Origin: Podarcis liolepis
Lineage: Eukaryota
Assembly (NCBI GenBank): GCA_965112155.1
Contig: OZ218098.1
Direction: 5' to 3' (one strand)
DNA length: 64,000 nt
This document shows, piece by piece, positions 2,741 through 63,500 of the stretch (positions are counted from its first letter, which is position 1; the number at the start of each line of letters is the position of its first letter). Under the pieces are notes generated by a model. The model saw nothing but the letters and a program-made list of their open reading frames with translations, was not told the origin of the DNA and searched no databases. The position numbers were made by a program, and so were the translations under genes.

Positions 2741-2939
2741 CTATGGCAGATACACATTTAAAAATACAGTGGTTATATTGTTCCCACATAAGCTGTGAAA
2801 TTACATCCTGCGCACTGCGATAAAGGACACTGATCCATTATTCCACTCAGCATTATACTGGTAACAAACCACATTCCAAGACCGCATTCAGATTCAACAT
2901 GCAAAACATACATAGTGAAATTATTGTACAGTGACTGTA

Positions 2940-3148
2940 CAGTGGTACCTCTGGTTACGTACTTAATTCGTTCTGGAGGTCCGTTTTTAACCTGAAACTG
3001 TTCTTAACCTGAAGCACCACTTTAGCTAATGGGGCCTCCAACTGCTGGTGCGCTGTTCTCATCCTGAAGCAAAGTTCTTAACCAGAGGCACTATTTCTGG
3101 GTTAGCAGAGTTTGTAACCTGAAGCGTATGTAACCTGAGGTAACACTG
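2940..3148 (+). mobile_element. Tc1/mariner-superfamily (Tigger/pogo-like) MITE family A, copy 1
   Basis: TA|CAGTGGTACCTC...GAGGTAACACTG|TA termini with TA duplication; homologous to four other copies in the window; internally shortened (209 bp). Confidence 0.9.
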
Positions 3149-4659
3149 TACTGTATTTTACAAAACTGACATAACAATTGGTTTACTGGTTACTGGCTGT
3201 CATGTTGCTCTTAACAACTTAAGTTGCCTTATGTTTTACAGTTTTGCTTTAGGTTTTGTAACAAACAGTAGTGTTTTCAGTGATATGAAGTAGTCAGAAA
3301 TAATGTAAAATGCCAAGGACATTCTGCAAACACCCTGTGCAAAAAGGGTAGCCGACAAAGCAGCACAGATACTTGCGTCCATGGAAAAAAAGAAAAGAAT
3401 AATAATAATCCCCAGCACTGTATTGCCAAATAGATTGCCTGCCTGCAAACATTTGTAGCTAAATCGGTTTTATCAGTGCTCCAGAAAAATGCTCTCTCCT
3501 TCTAAATCCTTGTTAGATTGCCATGATGAAACTGTTACCAAGACCACCTAGTACAATCTGTCATGTCTAGGCAGTTCAGTATATTATTTGTGGCTACTGA
3601 CAAACAGCTATCACCTATCATACTCTACGAGCAGACTCCTTACCCACCAGACCTTCTATGAGAAATGTGGGCTGTTGAGGAGGCTGCGACACTCAGTGCT
3701 AGTACTGGGGGCGGGGTTAAGGTAAATGAAGGATACGCATCATTGTAACCTCATTAAGGTAAGTATCACTCCCAATCCACACACCCCAAAATTTCAGGGA
3801 ATATCTTCACATTTTCTCTCATTTTTACAGGGAATTCCCAATGTTCAGGGGTGTTGACTTTTCACCTTTCTCTTCCACACAAAAGCCTCAGAAACAGCAC
3901 CCCCCTAATTTAAGCTACTCTAGGAACCTGGGATGCAATTTTCAAGTACTGTACTGAGTGAAGCAAAACTCTATTATCTTATACAATGCTACACAAAAGA
4001 CAGTGGCTTCAAGAATGCAACTCTAAGCACATTTTAGATCATAGCATATGGATAACATGACATTAATGTAGTTTTGATTAAATATTCATTATTGTTTTTA
4101 CTGAAATATATATATGTATATTTCCAAACTGTAGGAATGATGAATCACACTTATGTATAGATATAGGTATAAACACACACACACAGACACACACGAGGTA
4201 TTTCTACAGATGTGCATGCAAAGACTGAGAGATACAGTTCAGAACAGCATAGCTGAATGAATGAATGAATTCATAGTTGAATATGCCCTGACATCTGTGG
4301 CATTTGGGAATGTTTTACTACCCATTCTACCTGATGTTTAGCACCTATTTGATTAGCAATGAACTTTAACAAGTCATCTTTCTATGCATCACATACCATC
4401 TCTTTGGGAAAGTATGTTTTGGTGCTTTTCCCCTTTTAATTTGATGATTCAAATTGTTTGTATTAAAATGCATTCTAATACATTTATTAGAATAAAAAAA
4501 CTGTCAGAATCCAGCCTGGGTCATCCAAACCCCAGCAGCACAGAGCAAGACCAAGAAAGAAATCTTAACATACACAGTCATTAGAGTAAGGACTGTTTTC
4601 AATGTATATACAGTAACACACAATTTCTGTGGAGTGGGGGAAGAAAGGATAGAAATTGG

Positions 4660-8957: not shown

Positions 8958-9112
8958 CTTTGGATAAGGGTACTGTTTTCCTCTGGGATACAGGAATCCA
9001 GTAAACCGGGGAATAACCATGTTTGGTACCAATGAGTCGTTTATCATAAGAAATGCCAGCCTCTCTCCATCAGGTGACCACCAGTGAGTTATGTGAGAAT
9101 GAAGGAGCTCCT
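8958..9112 (-). CDS. DPP10: DPP10 coding exon (approx. exon 9), 155 bp
   Basis: cctcccccag|AG GAG CTC...CCA AAG|gtaagg; translates (E)[51 protein letters not shown]; WWSPDG and YPYPK are family motifs and ELLHSH is DPP10-like rather than DPP6/DPP4. Confidence 0.97.
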
Positions 9113-9787
9113 CTGGGGGAGGGGAGGGAAAATGTTCTTAAAACCCATGAAATTAACAATTTTCATATATAATTCAGATCCCAATCTGAGGGAAGAATCC
9201 CAATCCACTGGTGCCCACAACAGCTTCACCACTTTCTCCACTGTCGTCTAAAGTCTGACTGAAGATTGCTTTATATACACATTTTGCTACTGTTGGCAAA
9301 CTTCCTACTGTTAAAAATAAATCAAACAGAGCAAACAGACAATGCTACATTATTTTGTACCAGTTAGGCCATAGCACAGCCAGGAGGCTGTGATTTTGTA
9401 TATTCAATTAGATTAGTACTGTTTTGAAATCTGTTCTTCAATATCTCAAAAAAAAAAATTTTTTTTTTACTGCAAAAAGGCTTTTCTTTTCCTTTTTCGT
9501 AGATCTCATTCTCAGAATACTTAGAATTTCTGTGATTGTGGGGTTTCAGCTTACTTTATTCTTTCGAGCTGACCCAAGGTGGTGTGTCTGTTTCCTCTCC
9601 AGTAAACCTTTCTGCAGTCTCCTTAGCTGCTCACACTTCCTGATCTGAAAACACTCAATTGGAGGAGTAACCTCATGATATCTTTACCTAGTCTTCATCT
9701 GTGGAAAGCTGGAGAGGCTGCAGAGTGAAGACCACTGGTGGGATGATTTAATGAATGAAAGAAACAGACACCTGAGAATTTCATTGA

Positions 9788-12290: not shown

Positions 12291-12987
12291 CTGTATATAC
12301 TCGAGTATAAGCCGACTTTTCCAGCACATTTTTAATGCTGAAAAAGCCCCCCCCCCATGGCTTATACTCGAGTGAGGCCGGTGGCAGCGGTGGCGGAGGG
12401 ACGAGCAGCCCGAAAGGAGCCCTTTCTCACCGCTGGTCCCGCCACCGCCTCGCAAGAGCAAGCACAGGAGCCATGGTTGGGAGAGGTGCTGCGCTGCACT
12501 GTGCCTCTCCCAACCGCGGCTCCTATGCCTGCTCTTCCGAGCAGCAGAGGCAGAAGCGGAGGGACGAGCAGCCCAAAAGGAGCCCTTTGGGGCTGCTCCT
12601 TCCTCCTCCACCGCCATTGCTGCCACCACCAGGTTTGTGGTGTGGTGAACCGGCATATACTCGAGTCAGTAAGTTTTCCCAGTTTTTTCTTCTAAAATTA
12701 GGTGCCTTAGCTTATATTCGGGTCAGCTTATACTTGATACAGTGGTACCTCGGGTTAAGTACTTAATTCGTTCCGGAGGTCCGTTCTTAACCTGAAACTG
12801 TACTTAACCTGAAGCACCACTTTAGCTAATGGGCCTCCTGCTGCCGCTGCGCCACCAGAGCACGATTTCTGTTCTCATCCTGAAGCAAAGTTCTTAACCT
12901 GAAGCACTATTTCTGGGTTAGCGGAGTCTGTAACCTGAAGCGTATGTAATCTGAAGCGTATGTAACCTGAGGTAACACTGTATAAGG
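12291..12987. mobile_element. Non-autonomous Tc2/pogo-like DNA element, right TIR interrupted by MITE A
   Basis: Left end TA|CTGTATATACTCGAGTATAAGCCGAC; right end GTCAGCTTATACTTGATA[MITE A]TATAAGG|TA; internal copies of TATACTCGAGT; internal ~32-bp direct repeat near 12393 and 12556. Confidence 0.75.
12740..12980 (+). mobile_element. MITE family A, copy 2 (nested in the right TIR of another DNA element)
   Basis: TA|CAGTGGTACCTCGGGTTA...TAACCTGAGGTAACACTG|TA. Confidence 0.9.
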
Positions 12988-17644: not shown

Positions 17645-18224
17645 ACTCGCCAAATGTCCCTATTTTCCAGGGATGTCCCTGATTTAGAGAAGCCATCCCA
17701 GTTTCTGAATTGATCCCATAATGTCCCGCTTTTTCTTAGGATACCCCTATTTTCATTGACGAAATATTGGAGGGCATGGAGTTATCCAACACCTGAGCTG
17801 TCTGAAGGAAGCCCTATACAGTGGTACCTCAGGTTAAGAACTTAATTCGTTCTGGAGGTCTGTTCTTAAACTGAAACTGTTCTTAACCTGAAGCACCACT
17901 TTAGCTAATGGGGCCTCCTGCTGCAGCCGCACCGCCAGAGCACGATTTCTGTTCTCATCCTGAAGCAAAGTTCTTAACCCGAGGTAATATTTCTGGGTTA
18001 GCGGAGTCTGTAACCTGAAGCATCTGTAACCTGAAGCGTATGTAACCCAAGGTACCACTGTATAAAGATGTTTTTTATGTTTAATGTTTTATTATGTTTT
18101 TAATATAGGAAGCTGCCTAGAGTGCAGGGTCAACTCAATAGGATGTGTGGGGTATAAATAGTAAAATTATCATTATGCAATGGGACGTCTCCCTATTTTC
18201 ATCAGTAAATTGTTGGAGGGTATG
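17645..18224. mobile_element. Degraded DNA-element/composite repeat hosting MITE A copy 3
   Basis: Repeated TGTCCC motifs and a duplicated end motif CCCTATTTTCAT...TTGGAGGG(C/T)ATG at about 17745-17778 and 18191-18224. Confidence 0.4.
17819..18060 (+). mobile_element. MITE family A, copy 3
   Basis: TA|CAGTGGTACCTCAGGTTA...TAACCCAAGGTACCACTG|TA. Confidence 0.9.
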
Positions 18225-24950: not shown

Positions 24951-25739
24951 CTTTTTCAAATGTTTCAGGGATATGCAATTTGATGAAGCAACAGTCAGTC
25001 ACAAGGGGTGTTCTTGGTTATGTTCCATTATATTGTTAGCTGCCTGTGTTATATAGCCAAGTGTGAAGAAATAAGCCCACTCTTCCTGGAAACATCTTGC
25101 AGCATATATAGGGAAACCTTTATGTCTTCTGTACTTTTACCTGCCTTTCTGTCAAGAGTGCATGCTACAGTTAGCTGCTCTCCTCATATTTCCGACATAT
25201 TTAATTTTGTCGTTATGCTCTGATGTATTGATAAATTAGCATAGTTAATTATTTAAACATTACCAATCATGTTCCAGATGGATGCAATTACTTCTCCCTT
25301 CAGCACTGTTTCCTGCCCCTATTTGTTTAATGTGATGCATCCTAACCAGAGGCATTTTTCACCATTCGTGCAATCTTGATTAACGATACATGAAGCAGTA
25401 TATCCTTACCAAGTGCTTGGCTGTATAGACTATTAGAAAATTTCTGTCTCTTATCAGAAGCTGCATGTGTGTGCCCAGCTCCAAGATCACAACCCAAGGC
25501 AACAATAAAACATACTCATTTTTGAATATGTGTGTGTTTGCACCAACTCCTAGGGGCCCAGGTCCCTTCGACCCACCTCAATAAAGTATTTGACCTACCC
25601 CCCTCCACTGATGGGCATTCCTTTCTTTTCAACATTTGGACTTCATTTCACAACAAGCCCTGTAAAAGAACTTGTAAAAACGTTGTTGGATGGCAAGAAA
25701 GCTGGGATTGGGCCAGCTGATGACATGGCTCCTCAAATT

Positions 25740-26589
25740 TCTTTTCTGATGAGAGCAGCTTTTGCATCTCATTTGGAAACCAAGGACCCAGAGTCTGGAG
25801 GAAAAATGGGGAGGCACACAATGCCAGATGCTTGAAGTCCAGTGTGAAGTTTCCACAGCCTGTGTTGATTTGGGGAGTCATGTCATCAGCTGGTGTTGGT
25901 CCACTGTGCTTCATTGAGTCCAGGGTCAACGCAGCCGTCTACCAGGAGATTTTGGAGCACTTCATGCTTCCTTCCGCAGACGAGCTTTATGGGGTTGCTG
26001 ACTTCATTTTCCAGCAGGACTTTGGCACCTGCCCACACTGCCCAAAGTACCAAAACCTGGTTCAATGCCCATGGGATTACTGTGCTTGATTGGCCAGCAA
26101 ACTCGCCTGACCTGAACCCCATAGAGAATCTATGGGGCATTAACAAGAGACAGATGAGAGACATGAGACCGAGCAATGCAGAAGAGCTGAAGGCTGCTAT
26201 TGAAGCATCCTGGTCTTCCATAACATCTCAGCAGTGCCACAGGCTGATAGCATCCATGCCACGCCGCATTGAGGCAGTAACTGATGCAAAAGGGGTCCAA
26301 ACCAAGTACTGAGTACATATGCATGCTTCTACTTCTCAGAGGTCCAATACTGGTCTATTTGCAATCCTTGTTTTGCTGATTTCATTTAATATTCTAATTT
26401 TCTGAGATTGTTAATTTGGGGTTTTCATCAGCTGTATGCCATGATCATCATAATTATAACAAATAAAGGCTTGGCATATCTTGCTCTGCATGTCATGAGT
26501 CTATCTCATATATTAGTTTCACCTTTTAAGCTGAATTACTGAAATAAATGAACTTTTCCACGATATTCTAATTTTCCAAGTTTCACCTG
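25740..26589 (+). mobile_element. 5'-truncated Tc1 transposon: DD34E transposase pseudogene plus right end
   Basis: FSDES motif near 25743, then VKFPQPVLIWGVMSSAGVGPLCF...FQQD; a +1 frameshift (gac tttggca); then LAPAHTAQST...DWPANSPDLNPIENLWG...MPRRIEAV...TKY* ending 26312; 34 residues between the second D and E; ends ...TTTCACCTG|TA. Confidence 0.93.
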
Positions 26590-38302: not shown

Positions 38303-40828
38303 ACATGCTTCTGTTAACAGTTCTTGCTGAAACTAAGCACTGAAGTTCAGTGTTCTACTTATTAGCCCTGAAAGCAATTGACCACATAAATGTAGCTGAA
38401 TAATATATCAACAGTCAAGAATGGCTTACTTGTTGCGTTCTGCATTTCATTAGTAAAACAGGAGAAGAAATATGTAGAGAAGATGCTAGGATGGTCTAGA
38501 AGACTTGTGTATTTTGGTACACCCATGTTTCAAGCCTGAGTCATTTCAATTTAAGATATGATTATTGACCCTTGGGTCATTTTATTGCTCTTATTGTTTT
38601 GTGTGTCAACATTAGTCACTTTTAGAACAGTATTTTGTTGCTATTTACACATTTAATGACAGCGTTTTAATTCTTCATAATGCAATACAAAGTCATGATA
38701 GCAGGGTTACTCATTTCAAGCATTGCTAATGCCTTTGCTGTGGGATTACTTCATTATGATCTCAAACACATTATAACATACTGCCCTACCAACAAAGCAC
38801 AATACTTCACTAGAGACAAAATCCTGTGCTCTGTTTTCCAAAACTAAATTTTGTATTATAGAATGGCAAAGTGATAGTTATTCTCCACATATTAAGCTCA
38901 CTAGGGCTGTCTGTTCTCCTTCAGATTACTTTAGATGCTTGTGCCTTGCCAAAGTTAGAGGGGAATGAGTTTTCTAGGAATCTGTACCTCTTTGATTCCA
39001 GCTGGACTCAAACTGATTGAGGCTGTTCTCCTTTCCTACATGTAACTTTAAAAGCTTGTGCCATGCCAGAGGTGAGAGCCTATTGGTACCAGTCCAAGGG
39101 CAAGAACGAAAAATCTGTTTGTCTGGGGCCCATGTCCCGGCAAGAAGAGAGAGGGAGCCCAGTACACTCCTCGAAAGGCACTATAGAAAGACATTATCTG
39201 AAATACCCGACTTGGAGAAAGGATATTGAAAAAGAAGTCAGTGCTAAGCTATGACAGATCTTGCTGCCTGGGAGTAAGCTGGTCACTGAGTGAAGAAGAC
39301 TGAAGCCCCATCCCAGAGAGAGTTTGCCAAGTGGCAGAGGGCTGGTGCTCATCTGATATTTTTGAATCAGAGCTTACCATAATCCAAAGATGTTATTTTA
39401 GGCAGCCTTAATTGTTATCTGAGCCAAAAGAACTAAGAACTCTGCATGACCACATAGCCATGCCAAATCTCCCAATAAGCATGCTGGAGTGTAGGGACCC
39501 ATTTAATGAAAAAGGACTTACTGGAATATAAGCTAGAATGGTATCTAAGGGCAGTCAAAAAGTATTTCATATTCATTTCAGAATGAACAAAGAACTTTGC
39601 AGCTGATGGGAAGTTTCTCGGTATGAGTCAATTTGAAATAAGGAAATGTGCGTTATAGTTAATGTCTATGTGTAGCTATATCCAGTGAATGACACACAAT
39701 GGGAGTGTGTCCTACACAAAATAAACATGTTTAAAGGAAGGTATCGGGCTTGGCAGATTTATAACCCCTTTTAACTGAAAGCCTATTTTTTAAAGAAAAT
39801 CAATAAACATTTTAGACATTTTAGAGATAGTACAACTTATAGCCAACAAATCAAACATCCTCCTTTGTCTAATATAGCATATTTTCTCTACCTTTGGTGC
39901 ATATAGTTTAAAACATTTCTTATACTGGCAGATCTGATTTAAAAGGACTTGGCTCTGCATTGCATTTCAAAGTATTCAGTCCTTTTTCGAAAATCTTCAA
40001 AAACATTTTTGGTTTATCTACAGCACAGAAATGGAGCTAACTGTTATTCTCTTGGGATTCCGCTATTCAACAGTTCCTTTTTCAACAGGTCTCTTTTGTA
40101 CATTCAGGTATGCAGTGTTTAGAAATGCAGAAATAAAAGTGTATAGCAGCTCCCCCTCCACCCCAGGTTTTGGGAATAGTCTTTTATACTAGCAAACAGA
40201 ATAAAACCAGCCATCATTAAGAGGCAATCATGGCCTTCCTATATCTGAAAGAAAGGGGCTAGCTCACCAGGACAGGATTACTTATTTTTTTACAAAGAAA
40301 TTAGGAGGAAGGGAGCCACTGAATCACATTCAAATGCCATGCCTGCAGCAACTTTGTTCAGCAGTGTAACCTCTGTTGAAGTCTTTAATTTTGCTTCCTC
40401 TTTTTCGTTGTGCAGGACATCCCACAAAAGGGTTCATGATAATTTGATTCTTTCCCACCCACCCAAGAAGAAATTAGTACATCAGGAAGCTGCCATAGTT
40501 CCTGTTAAATAAAGAATTAACTGTATAGATTTCAGTTACCCAATCTGAGGATGTGGACAAGGTTCTGGGAGAGATGGGGCCTGCCACTTGTGAGCTTGAC
40601 CCTTACCCTTCTTGGTTCATAACACTGAGCACATAACATTCTGAAGGCTGAATGTATCCTGCTGGTGTGCCTGCCTGCTCCTCCCCATTAGCATCCCAGT
40701 ACTCGGCAGTGACTCCACTGCCAGGAGGCTCTGTCCATGTTGTTGCACCTCCCCCAGTGGCTACTCCTGCTGGAATCAGGTGTGTTGAACCAGCCCTGCC
40801 AAGCTTAAAGAATCCCAAAGTAACAATA

Positions 40829-41054
40829 CAGTGGTACCTCGGGTTAAGTATTTAATTCGTTCTGAAGGTCCGTTCTTAACCTGAAACTGTTCTTAACCTG
40901 AAGCACAACTTTAGCTAATGGGGCCTCCTGCTGCCGCCGCGCCACAAGAGCATGATTACTGTTCTCATCCTGAAGCAAAGTTCTTAACCTGAAGCACTAT
41001 TTCTGGGTTAGCGGAGTCTGTAACCTGAAGCGTATGTAACCTGAGGTACCACTG
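40829..41054 (+). mobile_element. MITE family A, copy 4
   Basis: TA|CAGTGGTACCTCGGGTTA...TAACCTGAGGTACCACTG|TA. Confidence 0.9.
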
Positions 41055-41214
41055 TAATGAAATAAGATGGGTAACAGTAGTTGAAAAGGTCAGCTCTGTG
41101 TAAGCTTTGTGGAGACTTAGAACTTGCAAGGTGGCCTCACAGAGTAGCACCACTTCCAAACAGGAACATGCATAAAGAGGCCAGTTATGCTATTTTGTAT
41201 ATGCCCCCAAAAAG

Positions 41215-41698
41215 GCATCTTAAAAAGTAGAGGCATCACCTTGCCAACAAAGGTCCGTATAGTAAAAGCTATGGTTTTCCCAGTAGTGATGTATGGAAGT
41301 GAGAGCTGGACCATAAAGAAGGCTGATCGCTGAAGAATTGATGCTTTTGAATTATGGTGCTGGAGGAGACTCTTGAGAGTCCCATGGACTGCAAGAAGAT
41401 CAAACCTATCCATTCTTAAGGAAATCAGCCCTGAGTGCTCACTGGAAGGACAGATCATGAAGCTGAGACTCCAATACTTTGGCCACCTCATGGAAAAGAC
41501 CCTGATGTTGGGAAAGATGGAGGGCACAAGGAGAAGGGGACGACAGAGGACGCGATGGTTGGATAGTGTTCTTGAAGCTACCAGCATTAGTTTGGCCAAA
41601 CTGCGGGAGACAGTGGAAGACAGGAGTGCCTGGCGTGCTCTGGTCCATGGGGTCACAAAGAGTCGGACACGACTAAACGACTAAAGAACAACAACAAC
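41215..41698 (+). mobile_element. BovB (RTE clade) LINE 3' fragment
   Basis: Peptides TLPTKVRIVKAMVFPVVMYGSESWT and RVPWTARRSNLSILKEISPECSLEGQIMKLRLQYFGHLM...AWRALVHGVTKSRTRL; (CAA)n tail; flanking ATATGCCC direct repeat (41199 and 41699). Confidence 0.93.
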
Positions 41699-44064
41699 AT
41701 ATGCCCAAAGTGAGCAACATAAGGTATTTCAGATGCTGTGTGTTATTCCAGAGTTTTCGTGTGCTAGAATGAATAATTTATACCAGAGGCATAAATATTT
41801 ATACTAGTGTATGTGACCCTCCAGATGTTGCTAGCAAATGTTCAAGGATAAATACACATTTAATCCAACAATATGGAGGTGGGGCAGTTTTTCCATATCT
41901 GGCTCAAAGACTCTCTATGAAAACTCTGGTGGAATGAAGACACTTGATTTAGCTCAGTTCCGCTCTAGTGCACTAATTCTGCATAGTATGCACTCAAAAT
42001 GTCAAAACTACTGTATCTCAGAGGCTACTCCAGTCATTTGTCTAGGGACCAAGAGCATCTAACTCCATAATGAAAATGGCACCATCTCACAGCAAGGTCT
42101 TCATATTTATGGAGCATATACACTCAGTCATAGAATTAGATATCAATATGTATGTTTGCATATTACATACAAAATCCAAGAAAGTAACTGTTACTTTTGA
42201 GTGTAACTCTTTACAATTCTGGTATGGCTATCAGCATCAAGAATAATTTCTTTGGAGTTGCATCTGGTCCATGGACACCAGTTGGCCATCACTGACCGAC
42301 ACCTTATACAGTTTGTATGATGCAAGATGTTTAGAGACTGTGAACCTCTTATATTTTTTGAAACATCTGTGAAGGCACCAACTCTTTTCATTTCCTTTAT
42401 TTATTGCCTTGTCAAGCCAGAGACAAAGGTGATTTAAACTCTCAGAGCATGAGTTTCTAGAGAATAGAACAACTGTCTATGTTTTGTTGTGCCTTCATGT
42501 TAGCTGGTCCTGAATACATTATATCAAATGTGTAGGTCATAGGTATTTCAGCACAAATTGATAGTGCAGATGGTGCAGCCTATATTAATACAGGGCTCAA
42601 GGGAATTAACTTTATTTTGCTCATGTTCCTTTGTCTTTCAACATTTGATAATTTTGTTGATGTATTTATAGAATCTGAATTTCCCATCTGTCAACAGGCT
42701 GGTTTCTTGTTTCCATCAAGTGAGATTGGTTCCAAACACATTATTGTGCTATTTTATGAAGCCGCGTTCCATTGTCACAGGATGTTTATCAATATATACA
42801 AAATCCACTGGTGGCCACTTCACTTATCACTTTGCAATGCAGTATCCAGGAATGTTTTAAACTACCTATATTTATTAAATAACCAATAACAATTTCATAA
42901 TGTTTAATGCCAAGAGGAATTCCAAGGTTACTCTGCCAACTGAGTTGATAAGCACTCAAGGATAAAGCAAATCTATTTCGTTGATTACCCTTGAAAAATA
43001 ATTTGCAATCATCTATCTGGGGAAAAAATCAGTGTGTGTAAAAACCAGTTTCAACATTATAAGTAGTTCACTAAATTTGTATGGAAAATCCTTAGTAATA
43101 TTAACTGTAAGTTTTTAATGGATGGGCTGAATAAACTCATTGCTTATAGCTACATAATGAAGTTATTCTGCTGGATGCAGAATATAACTTAAATAGACAT
43201 TGCTTTGAATTTAATTTTTTTTGTTGATTGACCCACAATCCTTTGCAGGGTGAGACAGTGAGTTTCATTTATATGAAGTTCAGGTAGTAGGGCCTGGTTA
43301 ATAGAAATAATTTAATTTTGTTTCTCGTTTGCTTTGATGAAATAGTATGAGATACATTTATTGAATTTGCTATTAGCAGTTTCAGCCTTCCTAGTAACAG
43401 TTCAGTACAATGGCAAACAAAAGTGAGATAACCAATGAAGCTTTGTGTGTATGCCACATTTTATTCAACCACTTATCAAATGTGTAGGAGAGTTGCCATT
43501 AATGTTCTATAGCCAATATTGCACAAGCTCTAAACTCACCAGATCCCATCATCATTCTTGTTAGAATTATCATTAATTATCATTAAATATACCGTATTAA
43601 CTAAATTATACTAACTTCTTTAGTACTTCCTATGCCAACATGGTAGCAGACTTTCAGCAAACATTGTCATTCAGTGCACTTTTCATTCAATATTTCTGTC
43701 TATAAGTACTTTCAACACAACTAATAATATATAATCCATTTAATCCTTGGATTTTGCAATGTTGCCAATAAAATCAGAACCAGAATGAACATCAGGATGA
43801 TTTTATTGATATTTTCAATATTTATTTCATCTGCCAAAATGTGGGAATGAAACATTCTGGCTCTGTCAGCCTCATTCTGTGCAAACAGGTTTAGCAAGGA
43901 GGACTGTAAAACAATGTAATGTTGCTGACAGATTTAGTTTTTAGGAGCAAAGAGTGAGTTCAGCCTAAATCTCAAGTCTAACAAAAACACTAGATAAAGG
44001 ACCTACAGAGGAAGAACTAGGAGAATATAAACAATCTCATCTAGGATATCAGTGGGCAGTTTAC

Positions 44065-44290
44065 ACTGAGAACTAGTCAAAATAAAAAAATTCCTTCCAG
44101 TAGCACCTTAAAGACCAACTATAGAAGGATCTGGCAACTTCTGTTTCAGTGTATCTGAAGAAGTGTGCATGCACACGAAAGCTCATACCAAGAACTAACT
44201 TAGTTGGTCTTTAAGGTGCTACTGGAAGGATTTTTTTTTATTTTGACTATGGCAGACCAACACGGCTACCTATCTGTAACTGAGAACTAG
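44065..44290 (+). mobile_element. Penelope-like element terminal remnant with inverted partial repeat
   Basis: Core CTGAAGAAG...CACGAAAGCTCAT...TTAGTTGGTCTTTAAGGTGCTACT...GCAGACCAACACGGCTACC resembles reptile Penelope-like pseudo-LTRs; 48-bp inverted arms 44074-44121 and 44201-44249; 12-bp direct repeat ACTGAGAACTAG at 44065-44076 and 44279-44290. Confidence 0.78.
44151..44188 (+). ncRNA. Minimal type I hammerhead ribozyme motif
   Basis: GUAU-CUGAAGA-A-GUGUGC-AU-GCACAC-GAAA-GC-UC-AUAC: conserved boxes CUGANGA and GAAA, stem II GUGUGC/GCACAC, stem I GUAU/AUAC, palindromic AGCU in place of stem III, UH site (UC). Confidence 0.68.
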
Positions 44291-44865
44291 GTCAAATTAG
44301 CTATATAGGTAGACTTCCCGTAGCATGTTTTCCTCCATGCTGAAAAAGTCTTCTAATAATAAATTCAAACTCAATTTAAACATGACAAAGGGTCTGTATG
44401 GTGAAGTGAGTTTGAGTTTGTTGACCCTTATCCAGTGCAGAAAAAAAGACTTTCTTGTGAAGTGAGTATCTCATAGGAAATAGTCTGAGCCCTTTTCATC
44501 TCATGTATTTTTGCGTGATCAATACCATGATCAAGCAAGGAGTGGATCTGTTCATTTGTGCAATGATATGACAGATGGACCCTAGAAAATGAACCTAAAG
44601 GACTGAACTGTACAACTTGTGTGAGAATGCCAGGAGGGTCAGACTAGAACTGAACATATTCTATTCTTTATGCAGTTGCCCCGTGCACTGCCATATAAGA
44701 ACTACACTTTGGAGTAACTTCATGGCAGTGAAGTATTCTCTGACTCTAGGCTAGCCTGACCCACCTAGGCTAGGGAGAAGGGGGCTATAAAAGTTTTCCT
44801 GGTAGGGATTTTGTTTGAGAAACAAGATCTTCCTAGCTTTGATGTGCTTCGATTGATTTGGACCT

Positions 44866-45001
44866 CATAGAATCATAGAATTGCAGGGTCATGGGAGTTG
44901 GAAGGGACCTCAAGGGTCATCTTGTCCAACCCTCTGCAATGCAGGAATCACAGCTAAAGCATCCATGACAGATGGCCAACCAGCCTCTGCTTAAAGACTC
45001 T
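44866..45001 (-). mobile_element. CR1 3' end (minus strand)
   Basis: TCATAGAATCATAGAAT...GTTGGAAGGGACC...GGTCATCTTGTCCAACCC is the reverse complement of the CR1 tail. Confidence 0.8.
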
Positions 45002-56945: not shown

Positions 56946-57512
56946 CACATGCCAGAATGCCTCCCTTGTGGTGAACAAAGCAGTGAGGTGAATGCCACTT
57001 CTTGTACCTCTGCTGCCTGAGTCAGGTGCTTCACACCGCCTCATGGGTGGACCAGCACTGCCTGCCTTACAAGGACACTCCAAAACTGCAGGGAACCATA
57101 TGCCTTCTGTGGCCATAGATCTGTTAAACAAACTTGCACAGCCAGTAGATAACACATTAGTCTAGGCTTTGACAGTCAAGGATGGAGGCCACAGACACAC
57201 AGTACTTACTCATGAAAGGTTAGCTTCATGTGACCAGCGGAGCTCACATGAGGTCTCCTCCTGCTTAACATTTAGCAGCCAAGAATTGGAAAGGCTTGTA
57301 AATTCGTACAATCTGTGACTGATATATGGAGACGGTCTCCTAATTTAGACTGTCTTGCAAATGTCCTAGAATCTCAAGGAAATGGCTAGGTTTAGTTCCA
57401 AGCCAATCTGAGGCATGTCACAGGTCTGTCAGTTATCTTTGAGAAGAATACAATAGAAATCAGATTTTCATTTCATGAAACAAATTCAATAGGCAATCCT
57501 GAGCAGTCCATA

Positions 57513-57754
57513 CAATGGTACCTCTGGTTATGAACTTAATATGTTCCGGAGGTCTGTTCTTAACCTGAAACCGTTCTTAACCTAAGGTACCACTTTAGCT
57601 AATGGGGCCTCCTGCTGCCACCGCATCACCGCCACACGATTTCTGTTATCATTCTGAGGTAAAGTTCTTAACCCGAGGTACTACTTCCGGGTTAGTGGAG
57701 TCTGTAACCCGAAGTATTTATAACCCGAGGTGTTTGTAACCCGAGGTACCACTG
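57513..57754 (+). mobile_element. MITE family A, copy 5 (more diverged)
   Basis: TA|CAATGGTACCTCTGGTTA...TAACCCGAGGTACCACTG|TA. Confidence 0.88.
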
Positions 57755-58819
57755 TATAATAAAGATAAGAGAAACCTCCTGTACCAAAATAATTTCACAG
57801 TGTTTGCTTTATAACACAGAACTCTTAATGTTAGAAAATATGACTAGCCTGAACATTTTAAGGTGTTGAAGCACTTAAGATCTGAACTTTATTGTTGTTT
57901 GCATCAAGCTCCATTAACTCCTCTCCATGGGATATCTCAGCATGTTATGCTAGTGATCTGTTACGCAGTGTGTGGTTGAAATAAACAATGAATATAAGTG
58001 TGGAAGTGCTCTTGGATGTTTCTTCTTTCAATAAATTGTTTTGGCAGAGTTTGAAAAACTTCAGAACAATCCCTGTTTTTCACAGGACCCAAAACATGGT
58101 AAAACTATTATTCTGTTGTCTATGAAGCCAAAGAGGAGAGGGAAAAAGTGCCAGGATTTAATCACTCTTCTATTTTATGCTACAGTAAAGCTCTGTACTT
58201 AAGATACTTCCAAGCTTTTTCTTTGAGGCTGAGGGTATCATTGTGAAAGCCACAATGGATCTTGATTTGTGAAAATGTCGGGAGAAATAACAGACAACCC
58301 ATTGATTTGGCCACCCATATGGGATTCCACAGCCAACTACAGATGAGACAACTACACACATTCAATGGAATGCAGTACTGAAACTGCCTCCCTAAAACTT
58401 GGTGTGTACATCAGACACAGCATGGGGGAGGTGAACTTTGGGAGCCAGCAATCAAATAGGGCCTAGTCCAGGCTACAACCCAACTACTAAAGGAGGTGGG
58501 TGTAGGATATTTAATGAAAATTATTTCCCTGAGTCTCAGTTCTTAGAACGAACTTGTTCAGTTAAACATCAACAACAATATCTGAACTACACCCTGACCA
58601 ACTAAAGATGAATTAGGTTCATTTTGGGGTAGAGCTTCAAGAATTTCAAGTTCATTTTCACATCTGGCCTGAAGGAAGTTGCAGAAGTGATGGTAGCTCG
58701 CTATTGCTCGTTTGCAAAGCACTTTGAAGGTAAAATTGCTTGAATTCACTGGAAGCTTGACTCCACTGTTACAGCAGATAACTTCAAGGGTGTCCGGAGC
58801 ACTGTCTAGTGCTGTTGTA

Positions 58820-59003: not shown

Positions 59004-59769
59004 TAATGAGGCAGATATATAGGTACTGCTGTTAGTAAGACTGATTAGTCCCTTAATCACTGTTGCTAAGCAATTCAAGGGAAGAAATCTGAAGCATTTC
59101 GAGTATCTTTCCTGCTGAAGATATTTGCACTCTTCCAACAGGAGCAGGTTGCAGTAAGAAGTACAGGTAAAGGAACAAAATGAATTATGCCCTGTGTCTA
59201 ACAGCTGTGTGGCTGGCACATATTAAATTGGGTAAGTTCTTTTCCAGTTCTCTTGGCATTCTTTCTGTCAGAAATTTTATTACTTCTGTGTGGCCCCTAA
59301 TTTACTTTTGCCCCTACACTTCAGCACAACAGCTTGTAACATTCTCAATACTATATTTAATTTTGGTGTCTTTTTTTCCTTTTCGCTATGGGTGATCTTT
59401 TTTTGTGAACCAAAATGTTCATCTGGATGAACGTGTACTGAGCTAGCTTCTTTTAGGGAAACTGAGCTGCAACTAGTTCCTTTTGGAAAATGAATATTTA
59501 ATGAATTCCTATTAAAAAAAACACACCTAATTTTCCAAGCATTTTTGTATCTATAGATCTGTTGTCCAGATCCTATGAGTGAGATTCACCTAATGAACCA
59601 CAGCAGTAGAAGCCCTTGCACAAGGGCTTCCACTTGCACAATGGGCCTTTCCAATCTTTCTTCCCCACCTTCCAAAATTGGCTCAGGGGGTGTCAGGGAG
59701 ATGGCTTCAACTAGCAAGCTAATATGCTTGAGCAGATGAAATTGTTGTAATACCGCAATGTTGAATTCT

Positions 59770-60520
59770 ACCCTGCAGTCAGCAGTAAGTTGAATACCCT
59801 GACACAACTTAAGCCAGTAGTCGCTGGCACATTGTCTGGCAATCTGCTGAGCATTGCTCATTGCCTTTCTCAGTGCAGCAAGTGTCTTCTCATAGGACAC
59901 ACATTTGTAGTTCGCAGGAGCCTAGCACTATGCAGTGACAACAGGTTCAATGTCTTTAATGCCAGTCAGGGATCTGCTGCTATCTTTTGCTGAAAAAGGG
60001 CATAGCTGTATTATAGGTTGCCTCTTTGATGCACTTCCAGCTGATTTTGACACTGTCTCTAGGGCACTTCAGTAGTGCTGGTTTGATGGAATCAGAGGAG
60101 CATTCACAATGTTCAAGTATGACTGCTCTGGAAGTGTTGATTTGAGGCCACACTTTCTGCTTTGTGCTATAGGCGGTCTCTGGCTGGAGAAGGATCTTGC
60201 TCACCACCAGGGAGTGATCCATGTCACAATCAGCACTGTGGTAGCCTATGTGACATGAACACAGTTCAATGCCAATTGCCTCGTAACAATCAAGTCCAGC
60301 TGGTGCCAGTGGCCTAACCTTGGATATCTCCAGGACACTTGCCATTTTGCCTTGGCAGAGAAGAATGTGTTTGTGATGCAAAGGCTGTGAAACGAGCACA
60401 ACTCAAGCAGACTTTGTCCATTCTCATTCGTGCTGCCAATACCAAAGTGCCCTGTGCAATTGTCCCATGTGTGATGATTGACCCTAACTCTGGCATTGAA
60501 ATCTGCTATCCAGAATAGGT
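59770..60520 (-). mobile_element. Degraded RTE-clade LINE fragment (AP endonuclease region)
   Basis: Frameshifted peptides DFNARV...NENGQSLLELCSFHSLCITNTFF...SWRYPRLGHWHQLDLIVTR, SADCDMDHSLV and AQQIARQCASDYW, typical of RTE endonuclease and linker; boundaries approximate. Confidence 0.85.
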
Positions 60521-63500
60521 GTTTGCAGGCCAGAGGTACATTCCATAAGCAATGTGATCTGCACCTGTCCATGAGATGTTGAGGATGTGTACTGAAAGCA
60601 TATAAGTGACACTTGAAATATAAACGACACTTGAAATGACTGATCAATCCAATAAAGATCTACTGTGGTTTCTTTGCTACGCTCTGCCCTGTGTAATCCA
60701 TTATATCATCATTACTGCTTTAAAAGGGCACCTACTTCCTTATAATCTATCATCCCTCAGTGTAGTGTATCAGAGAGAGAAAGGAAAGGGCAGGCACAGC
60801 CTTGGGAAACAATCATGTTACAATACCATGAGTAGCATCTCTTACGTAACTTGAACAAATAAAGTAACTATTATCCATAAAATTTACTTCTCTGACTTGA
60901 ATTTTAGTCAGGATATGCACTCTTCCATAGATTTCCAATTTGGGCTGGAAGGGAGCCAATGTAGCTTTGCTTGAAAATCATTAGACAATATCCTTCCTTC
61001 TATCAACTTAGGTTAAAGTGTATATCAAATTATACACTTACAAATTAATCCATGTCATATTGATGACAGTGTGCCAGAAGTCGAAAAGAACAGTGTGTCT
61101 GTTACAAGAGCTCAGATATGACTGAAAAGTGCAGTCATAGTTAAGGTAAAATGCTTGTTCTTCAGAGATGAAATATCTACTTTAAACCCTCAAAACGTGT
61201 TATTATACTTCAGTTATACACTTACAATAATTAATGTAGCTCGTACCCAGTCTATCTTGCCTGTAAACTTTATTTCTGACCTTTTTGGAGACTTATAATT
61301 TCAGTCTACTAACAACTGTTGATGCTGTTGCTGCTCCTGCTGAGTTTACTCATTAAGGAAGAATATTGCCAACAGTTTGTTTGATTGTGTTCACCTTTGA
61401 TGGTCAGGGGGATTTACTAGGACTAAATTATAATGAGCAAATAACACTATTTTCCATCCTTGTATGAGTGCTTATTATGTTTGATGCAAGATAGAAAATC
61501 TCCACTTATACAAGCCCTGTTAATTTTAATTCTTTTATCACTTATTTTATTGCTTTATTTGAAAGCATTTATATGCCACTTAATATTTCAAAAATCTCTA
61601 AGTAGTTATTATACCCCCGAATCCTGTTGTAAACATGGTCCTTTCTAAGTAAGGAGTGAGGTTGCTACACAAAGCCAGTGGAATTTACGCCACAAACAGT
61701 TTAGCTGTGGGAATTCCAACAGAAAAAGAAGGGTGTGTACAAAATTTTGCAGCAGGCTTGAGGAACTAATGTTTTAGAATCTAGATGTTGATACATGCTG
61801 CCAACCTACACCATCACTGCTCAACCATATTTGTACTTGAAGCAAAATAACCCCTATGGTTAGAGTGTTACATGACTGGGGTGCCATCACGCACATAAAA
61901 ACCTTTTATTTGGCAGTCATTCAGCTCACCATGGATGACAGTGGTGTCATTAGAAAGCCCTCCAGTGAAGTTATATGACTAGGTAAAGATAAAGGCAGGT
62001 GGTACTTCAAGTACTCTGGTCATTCACTTAATAGTCCAGAACAGACTGGTAAAGTGCAGCTAGCATTGTATAGGCACTAACTGCTGTTTCTCAACAGTCT
62101 TCAAAGGTTGTTTCACATATCCCATGGTTGTCGAATCTGGAGACTACTAGAGTATGGATAATTTACAAAATGATATATATTACTATTATCTCTTAATGCA
62201 GTAAGAACATTAAATAAATGCAAAATACAAAAGTTATTTTAGATTGTTGTATAAAATTAAAGAATGCTACTAACCAAAGTACGCATAAAAAGGAATGTTA
62301 GCAAAGCTATACAGTTGTTTTTCTTCTTTAAATGCAAAAATTATCAAGTTTGTTTAGCAGAGGCATACATATGGGTCAGTGAAACCTGTGCACGCCCAGG
62401 GTGTGGGTGTGTGCAAAATTCACCTATCAGACTATAGACTACTGAATATATGACATATATGTGAGTGCCGACGCACCACTGATATTGCCGTGAGATCAAA
62501 CATGGGAGAGAAGCTTTCTGTCCTTCTTGCACTGTGGCACAAAGGCATGTGGTGGTGGTGGTGGTTGCCCTCCTAGCCTCGTCCTCGCTCATCCTTGCCT
62601 TGTCCTCACTCCAGATGCTTTGATGACTTGGGTCGCATAAAACGGAGTAATTGCTAAGGTGGCTATTGTGGAATTGTGATTTTTTGTGGAGGAGGGACTC
62701 TTTGCTGGGGCTGCCAGCGCCTCTAGGTACACCTCTGCTATTTAGTACCCCATGGTGCTTCTGTATAGGCTGTCAGTAAGATTGAAATTCAGAATACTGT
62801 GATTCAATATTTTTTTAAGATTAAGTGTTCACTTGCAGCTAAATTTATCAATACTAATGGCATATTGTTTAAATATTTAATGCACGAGACATAGTACACA
62901 CCACATTCTCTGCAGCAAGCTACTGCAGATTTTCAACCACAACACAGTATTTATTGACATATTTAATTTAAAAAAGCATTTTCTAAAAAAATTGGATTTG
63001 CTAAAAACGTTTCGTACATTAAAATGGAAAGGTATGCTGTTGTTAGTGAGGGCAATTTTCCAGGATTGCCTGGCTTTGTGCCTGTAGATAAAGGGAAAGA
63101 GTTTGTGGGGATCGTTAAAATGAGCTCTGATGAAAAGGATTTTGTAGAACACTTTAGCACGCACAGTGGCGTCACTGAGTCCTACCAACAGCAGCTCCCC
63201 TGACTCTCAACGTGGTGCTCTTGAAAATCAAGAGGATCAAGGAGTGACTTCAGATTCCCAATGGATGTACAATTCTAATTATATCACGTAACGGCTTTCA
63301 AACACACTGTGTAAAATCATTTTTCAGAGTCCTATATGACAATGTAGATATCCTGTGTAAATTACTGATTTATTCATCAGCAGACTTTGTTCATCTGACC
63401 TCCCAGAGTGTGGTATGTATGCATGAGCCAAGCTCACCAAACTTAACTCAGTATGATCCATCAGTAAAAGACTACTAAAACCCTATAGAACAGCTATAGA

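Follow-up and report, generated by a model that had tools for sequence, protein, structure and literature searches.

The motif studied here lies in a 64-kb window of the Podarcis liolepis genome (the whole stretch of 64,000 nucleotides that was analysed; all positions are counted from its first letter). The host gene was named from the exon at 8961–9113 on the minus strand, whose best PDB match is DPP10 (E = 3.5e-29, versus 3.7e-17 for DPP6), and further DPP10 exons were located at about 27346, 27201, 10564, 6204, and 2718. The exons flanking the motif are at ~27,350 and ~70,400 (window coordinates), which delimit an intron of ~43 kb. In agreement with an earlier note on this DNA, the motif is therefore intronic in DPP10 and antisense to it, with the gene on the minus strand and the motif on the plus strand.

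A direct check of the sequence located all the bases listed in that note at 44151–44188 on the plus strand. The sequence and its fold correspond to a minimal type I hammerhead with a predicted cut after C44184, and fit the description of the minimal hammerhead (min-HHR) in PMC4209133. Stem I (4 bp) is formed by 44151–54 and 44185–88; the core CUGANGA box (44155–61) is followed by an extra A (44162), stem II (44163–44176, a perfect 14-base palindrome), the GAAA box (44177–80), and the AGCU palindrome of stem III (44180–83). Both boxes, a UH cut site, and helices I and II are thus present, and the features shared with the min-HHR (PMC4209133) comprise the core, the extra base between 9 and 10.1, the G10.1–C11.1 pair, the 4-bp helix I, and the palindromic 15.2–16.2 without loop 3. 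Stem II had been described as a perfect 6-bp helix. The pairing is present, but the 6-bp form has a 2-nt loop, and folding of the motif gave a stem II of 5 bp with a 4-base loop beside the 4-bp stem I (z = −0.44). No other motif with a long stem II of this kind was found within the 64-kb window. The Rfam hammerhead models did not match the locus at E ≤ 10, and the top local match in Rfam was a MITE-like hairpin model below its threshold. An Rfam match to mir-559 (40.8 bits, cut-off 95) was rejected as a reflection of the inverted repeat of the insertion described below.

The hammerhead is carried by a 214-base fold-back stub, in which an inverted arm and a forward arm lie inside a 12-bp target-site duplication. 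The left copy of the duplication (44065–44076), which the inverted arm overlaps by 3 bases, is identical to the right copy (44279–44290), which overlaps the tail end by 3–4 bases. The inverted arm (44074–44121, minus strand) is by its sequence a copy of the end repeat with a short tail; it corresponds to 44201–44249 and is devoid of the hammerhead, and the locus has a single hammerhead. The forward arm (44120–44281, plus strand) is a 5′-truncated pLTR with a long tail, and its differences from an intact unit (L219) are confined to the T-run and the tail end. The two arms are joined through 2 shared bases (microhomology), and the inverted repeat within the locus spans 43 bp. Comparison with intact units placed the remnant of a TATA-like box, a putative promoter element, at 44120–44125 on the plus strand; the box of the intact units starts at the equivalent of 44118, and its first two bases are missing at this locus. 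The ends of the family copies define a copy-start zone at 44147–44154 with an Inr-like TCAGT, a candidate transcription start on the plus strand. The 3′ ends of the family and the intact units define an optional tail (44249–44281, plus strand), which consists of the first ORF codons and lies between two reverse-transcription start zones (44237–50 and 44274–83). In two contig sets from one sample, the alignment of the left flank ended at 44064 with 56 letters remaining and that of the right flank began at 44305. An empty allele is suggested because an empty site would give just these ends (44279–44334, a 30-base overlap). One flank contig is identical to the window over 1,825 bases. It is likely that the empty allele resides in a near-identical haplotype and that the insertion is polymorphic. 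In the DPP10 pre-mRNA, the insertion (44074–44249) would form a long double-stranded hairpin (predicted at approximately −98 kcal/mol over 241 bases), a possible editing substrate.

The exact 38-mer of the motif has 9,879 matches in the genome, or about 0.4 per 64-kb window, and the reversed pattern used as a control has 0. The motif is neither a chance match nor rare. A 33-mer downstream of it has 14,679 genome matches, and longer copies continue upstream into the end of a GIY-YIG domain. Intact tandem units of 3,008 bp contain a 926-codon frame with reverse transcriptase (RT) and GIY-YIG parts, and both RVT_1 and the C-terminal GIY-YIG of this single ORF exceed the Pfam cut-offs. The segment linking RT to EN (L073/L219) reads CX4CX2C, which fits the CX2-5CxxC pattern, and such a linker marks Neptune and Nematis in the available part of PMC8557442. 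The family is a Penelope-like retrotransposon (PLE) with a Neptune-type linker, from which a putative Neptune clade is read. Its hammerhead lies in the pLTR, ~60 bases upstream of the ATG (44249), and tandem units, an inverted 5′-truncated copy, a one-sided tail, and target-site duplications were all found for the family. The proposal of a Penelope-type minimal type I hammerhead is accordingly upheld: the pLTR that contains it belongs to an RT + GIY-YIG element present in thousands of copies. Overall, we assign a probability of roughly 85% to the reading that the motif is the standard hammerhead of a young PLE end repeat and that this copy is a likely functionless fold-back insertion.

The 5′ ends of 100 arms (the first 100 matches to the anchor along contig 1) were counted. 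Forty-two fell at 44147–54, 15 of the 100 arms beginning at 44149, while 23 fell at 44155–93 and 35 further upstream; the excess of 42 starts in 8 bases over 23 in the next 39 bases has p = 2e-17. None of these 100 arms begins at 44185. With genome-wide junction patterns, in which a 7-base window had to be preceded by four foreign letters, 1,238 arms were detected at 44143–49, 32 at 44127–33, and 142 at 44179–85, and arm ends thus fall ~39-fold immediately upstream of the pile-up. Junctions at 44183–93 were tallied by hand among the first 100 of 187 matches listed and included 44185 (n = 25, the most frequent), 44190 (n = 18), and 44193 (n = 14); 11 of the 25 at 44185 among these 100 listed come from six perfect palindromic fold-backs. 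In such targeted tallies, any excess at the cut site is slight and confounded. Arms beginning at the cleavage site make up at most about 1%, and a small cleaved fraction may exist among the templates. The TATA-like box starts 30–31 bases upstream of the pile-up. The 3′ ends of the arms fall in two zones in this family and in the second one described below. One long-tailed arm is paired with one short-tailed arm in 36 of 40 fold-backs, that of the window included (p = 9e-8), and 35 of the 40 pairs are flanked by an 11–14 bp duplication.

A loose-pattern search for further hammerhead families yielded mostly chance matches (89, with 334 in the control) and revealed a second young PLE family (L215/L218; C1 at 22.50 Mb and 75.28 Mb). 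Its intact tandem units of 2,962 bp have a 915-codon frame without the linker finger and with the ATG at stem II, and its hammerhead has an ACGU palindrome and a stem I of only 2 bp. This family inserts into (TA)n and has 2,013 exact anchor copies. Among 63 arms from 50 loci, 16 begin at −37 to −31 from the core, 9 at −30 to +36, and 24 further up, and the remaining 14 reach the end of the fetched sequence. The TATA-like box starts at −66, and the pile-up occurs 30 bases after it. Since the two families have equal spacing to the TATA-like box and unequal distances from the hammerhead, the pile-up follows the box and not the hammerhead.

These positions suggest that the pile-up is the transcription start and that the templates are mostly uncut RNA, the latter because the cleavage site is the starting point of no more than ~1% of arms. 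Each insertion probably involves two rounds of copying of the RNA, as far as the transcription start. In the mechanism we propose, an intact tandem unit would start its RNA ~30 bases downstream of the TATA box in its pLTR, 2–3 bases before stem I, and the hammerhead would thus be placed at the RNA 5′ end. The element protein would cut both target strands ~12 bases apart, one cDNA would be primed on each target end, from the near and the far internal start site respectively, and microhomology would join the two cDNAs in head-to-head orientation. Synthesis of many cDNAs would end by run-off at the start of the RNA, its hammerhead still uncut, and this would scatter solo hammerheads in the genome. 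The forward arm in the window extends past the start site and would probably derive from the downstream pLTR of a read-through RNA. The full scheme, in which genomic stub ends would chart the Penelope life cycle in a vertebrate, with a TATA-fixed start, a protein dimer priming at two internal sites, uncut run-off, and a hammerhead that would fold solely at the RNA 5′ end and clip a capped 37-base leader rather than tandem precursors, is tentative, and we hold it at somewhat worse than even odds. If it is true, leader clipping by the hammerhead would act as a switch that diverts the RNA from translation or copying. The PLE protein of an anole (PAc) cuts and extends both strands, has two internal start sites, and uses uncut RNA; PAc hammerhead mutants insert normally, and cleavage requires the protein (PMC11167929). 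Counting against the scheme, an antisense template and self-priming are argued for in the available part of PMC3846280.

Transcript data were taken from RNA runs that all come from a related organism and not from the species of the window. There, 85–91% of the RNA reads aligned to the intact unit run on into unrelated sequence, and read starts or ends are not piled up at its cut site. Loose read ends occur at the equivalent of 44147–44154, and no pile of molecule starts was seen at the candidate start in four runs of this organism.

Instead of a transcription start, the pile-up might mark the 5′ edge of the hammerhead as a place where the reverse transcriptase stops, where RNA is processed at a splice acceptor, or where ends are joined by microhomology. 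The copy-start site is a perfect look-alike of a 3′ splice acceptor (a pyrimidine-rich CAG), a GTGT stretch with microhomology to stem II underlies part of the peak at 44149, and an intron of Drosophila virilis ends at helix I (PMC4209133). However, the pile-up of the second family is 36 bases from its core and ~10 before its AG, and is again 30 from the TATA-like box. Arms that stand alone, with no inverted partner, begin at the pile-up too, no common upstream exon is joined to the copy-start junctions, and the steep fall in ends just upstream likewise speaks against such processing. We regard this explanation as unlikely, at about one chance in five, and keep the TATA-fixed start as the preferred reading of the pile-up.

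A self-propagating non-autonomous family (retrozyme or MITE-like), making circular RNA through the hammerhead, is a very improbable identity for the short fold-backs. The very high copy number and the sub-threshold MITE-like hairpin match would suit such a family, as would a back-joint in two single-cell runs of the related organism, in which reads over L219:6648–6839 join 6839 back to 6648, the candidate start, and could stem from a tandem copy or a circle. Against it, the inversion junctions vary from copy to copy, which argues for an independent origin of every stub; no stubs arrayed in tandem were seen among the fetched loci, and few ends lie at the cut site. Non-LTR retrozymes, as described in the available part of bioRxiv 10.64898/2026.07.22.740005, are likewise non-coding, hammerhead-bearing, and PLE-derived, but consist of units repeated in tandem, every one of which has a hammerhead; the single fold-back stub with one hammerhead at this locus does not belong to that class.

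As for the copy in the DPP10 intron, its motif looks intact because the family is young (<1% diverged). The word "intact" in the earlier note, in the sense of retained function, finds no backing: this is one of ~10,000 young identical copies, and the core positions had 3 changes in 814, versus 22 in 2,294 elsewhere in the motif (p = 0.12; 74 motif-spanning arms out of 100), which is not significant conservation. Nor did the covariation of stem II expected across copies appear, as there was no compensatory pair among the first 100 of 14,252 variants listed, while four loop changes among the same 100 break the stem II palindrome. Between the families of this genome (only 2–3), stem II and the palindrome (AGCU versus ACGU) differ with pairing kept. 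In the local context, the predicted probability of stem I is 0.01 and the fold is dominated by the 43-bp inverted repeat; the probability is 0.53–0.67 with 0–3 upstream bases and at most 0.13 with 5 or more. These predictions support the idea that the weak stem I would be favoured at an RNA 5′ end. A specific upstream "anti-core" hairpin was rejected, as shuffled upstream sequence lowers stem I equally (median 0.02; 45 of 60 shuffles gave 0.1 or less). For two copies of the motif, an energy model that ignores the hammerhead core favours pairing by the stem II palindrome (−28 to −31 kcal/mol) over a stem III dimer (−13 kcal/mol). It is possible that a dimer would cleave in vitro.

Least probable of the alternatives, with barely any weight in our estimate, is that this copy is active and, paired with another copy, cuts a transcript antisense to the DPP10 intron and so affects DPP10. 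Its catalytic bases are complete, low cleavage of dimers has been reported (PMC4209133), and partner transcripts are plentiful in the related organism, where repeat-derived reads occur on both strands in two RNA runs and host RNAs contain the motif in either orientation. Against this stand the predicted near absence of stem I within the inverted repeat, the predicted preference for stem II over stem III pairing, the truncated TATA-like box, the likely polymorphism of the insertion, the lack of cleavage without the element's protein in PMC11167929, and, weakly, the absence of reads on the unique flanks of the insertion in the same two runs (~12% of each, tissue unspecified). An exapted intronic hammerhead conserved by the host, which would be single-copy, fixed, and conserved, is dismissed by the 9,879 copies and the probable empty allele. 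The copy is likely to be a functionless passenger.

Both the motif and the type of insertion are already known. The min-HHRs, reported in turtles and snakes, also occur as thousands of solo copies and opposite-strand pairs, but are heterogeneous (PMC4209133), whereas the present family is nearly invariant and has a stem II that is a perfect 14-base palindrome. As in PAc, a Poseidon element of Anolis carolinensis (Frangieh et al. 2024, PMC11167929), the optional tail at the beginning of the ORF is set by two internal RT start sites, and both strands appear to be cut and extended on uncut RNA. Unlike PAc, the first family has the CX4CX2C linker and an ATG ~60 bases past the hammerhead instead of at stem II; the second family is the PAc-like one of this genome. 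Head-to-head arms, a one-sided tail of 30–40 bp, and a short target-site duplication are shared with the inverted-pLTR insertions in the available parts of PMC3846280 and PMC8557442, in contrast to which copy ends were here counted against a TATA-like box in two families. A putative TATA and Inr in the pLTR were remarked on for the rotifer Adineta in the available part of PMC3846280, and that of PMC2377424 describes an internal promoter without TATA for Penelope of D. virilis. Beyond the Adineta remark, no earlier count of TATA-linked copy starts was found in the literature searched, with subscription papers and supplement figures outside its scope. The addition made here is that, within one genome, two unrelated families have the same distance from TATA to start. 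The locus itself is minor, one of thousands, and the family-level lead is modestly useful: the pattern across the family is relevant to the role of PLE hammerheads and to the way in which PLEs insert, lends in-genome support to the in vitro finding that the template is uncut RNA, and would account for the abundance of solo minimal hammerheads in genomes. It also provides exact positions of the TATA-like box, the start, and the two RT start zones for two families with intact copies.

Other repeats were noted in passing. Elsewhere in the genome, an older PLE-like hammerhead (L195/L196) differs in stem II but is similar in its tail, and a third RT + GIY-YIG-like family (L216/L222) has a 746-codon frame and repeats in which the descriptor used detected no hammerhead. 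Within the window, a piecewise fragment at 25554–26312 resembles a Tc1/mariner transposase, and those at 41117–41684 and 59586–60659 resemble non-LTR retrotransposon ORFs, all three labels being tentative. A high-copy repeat at 44895–44995, 600 bases from the hammerhead insertion, is abundant in the RNA reads as well. A MITE-like short inverted-repeat element has five copies in the window, at 2930–3153, 12730–12985, 17809–18065, 40819–41075, and 57503–57759.
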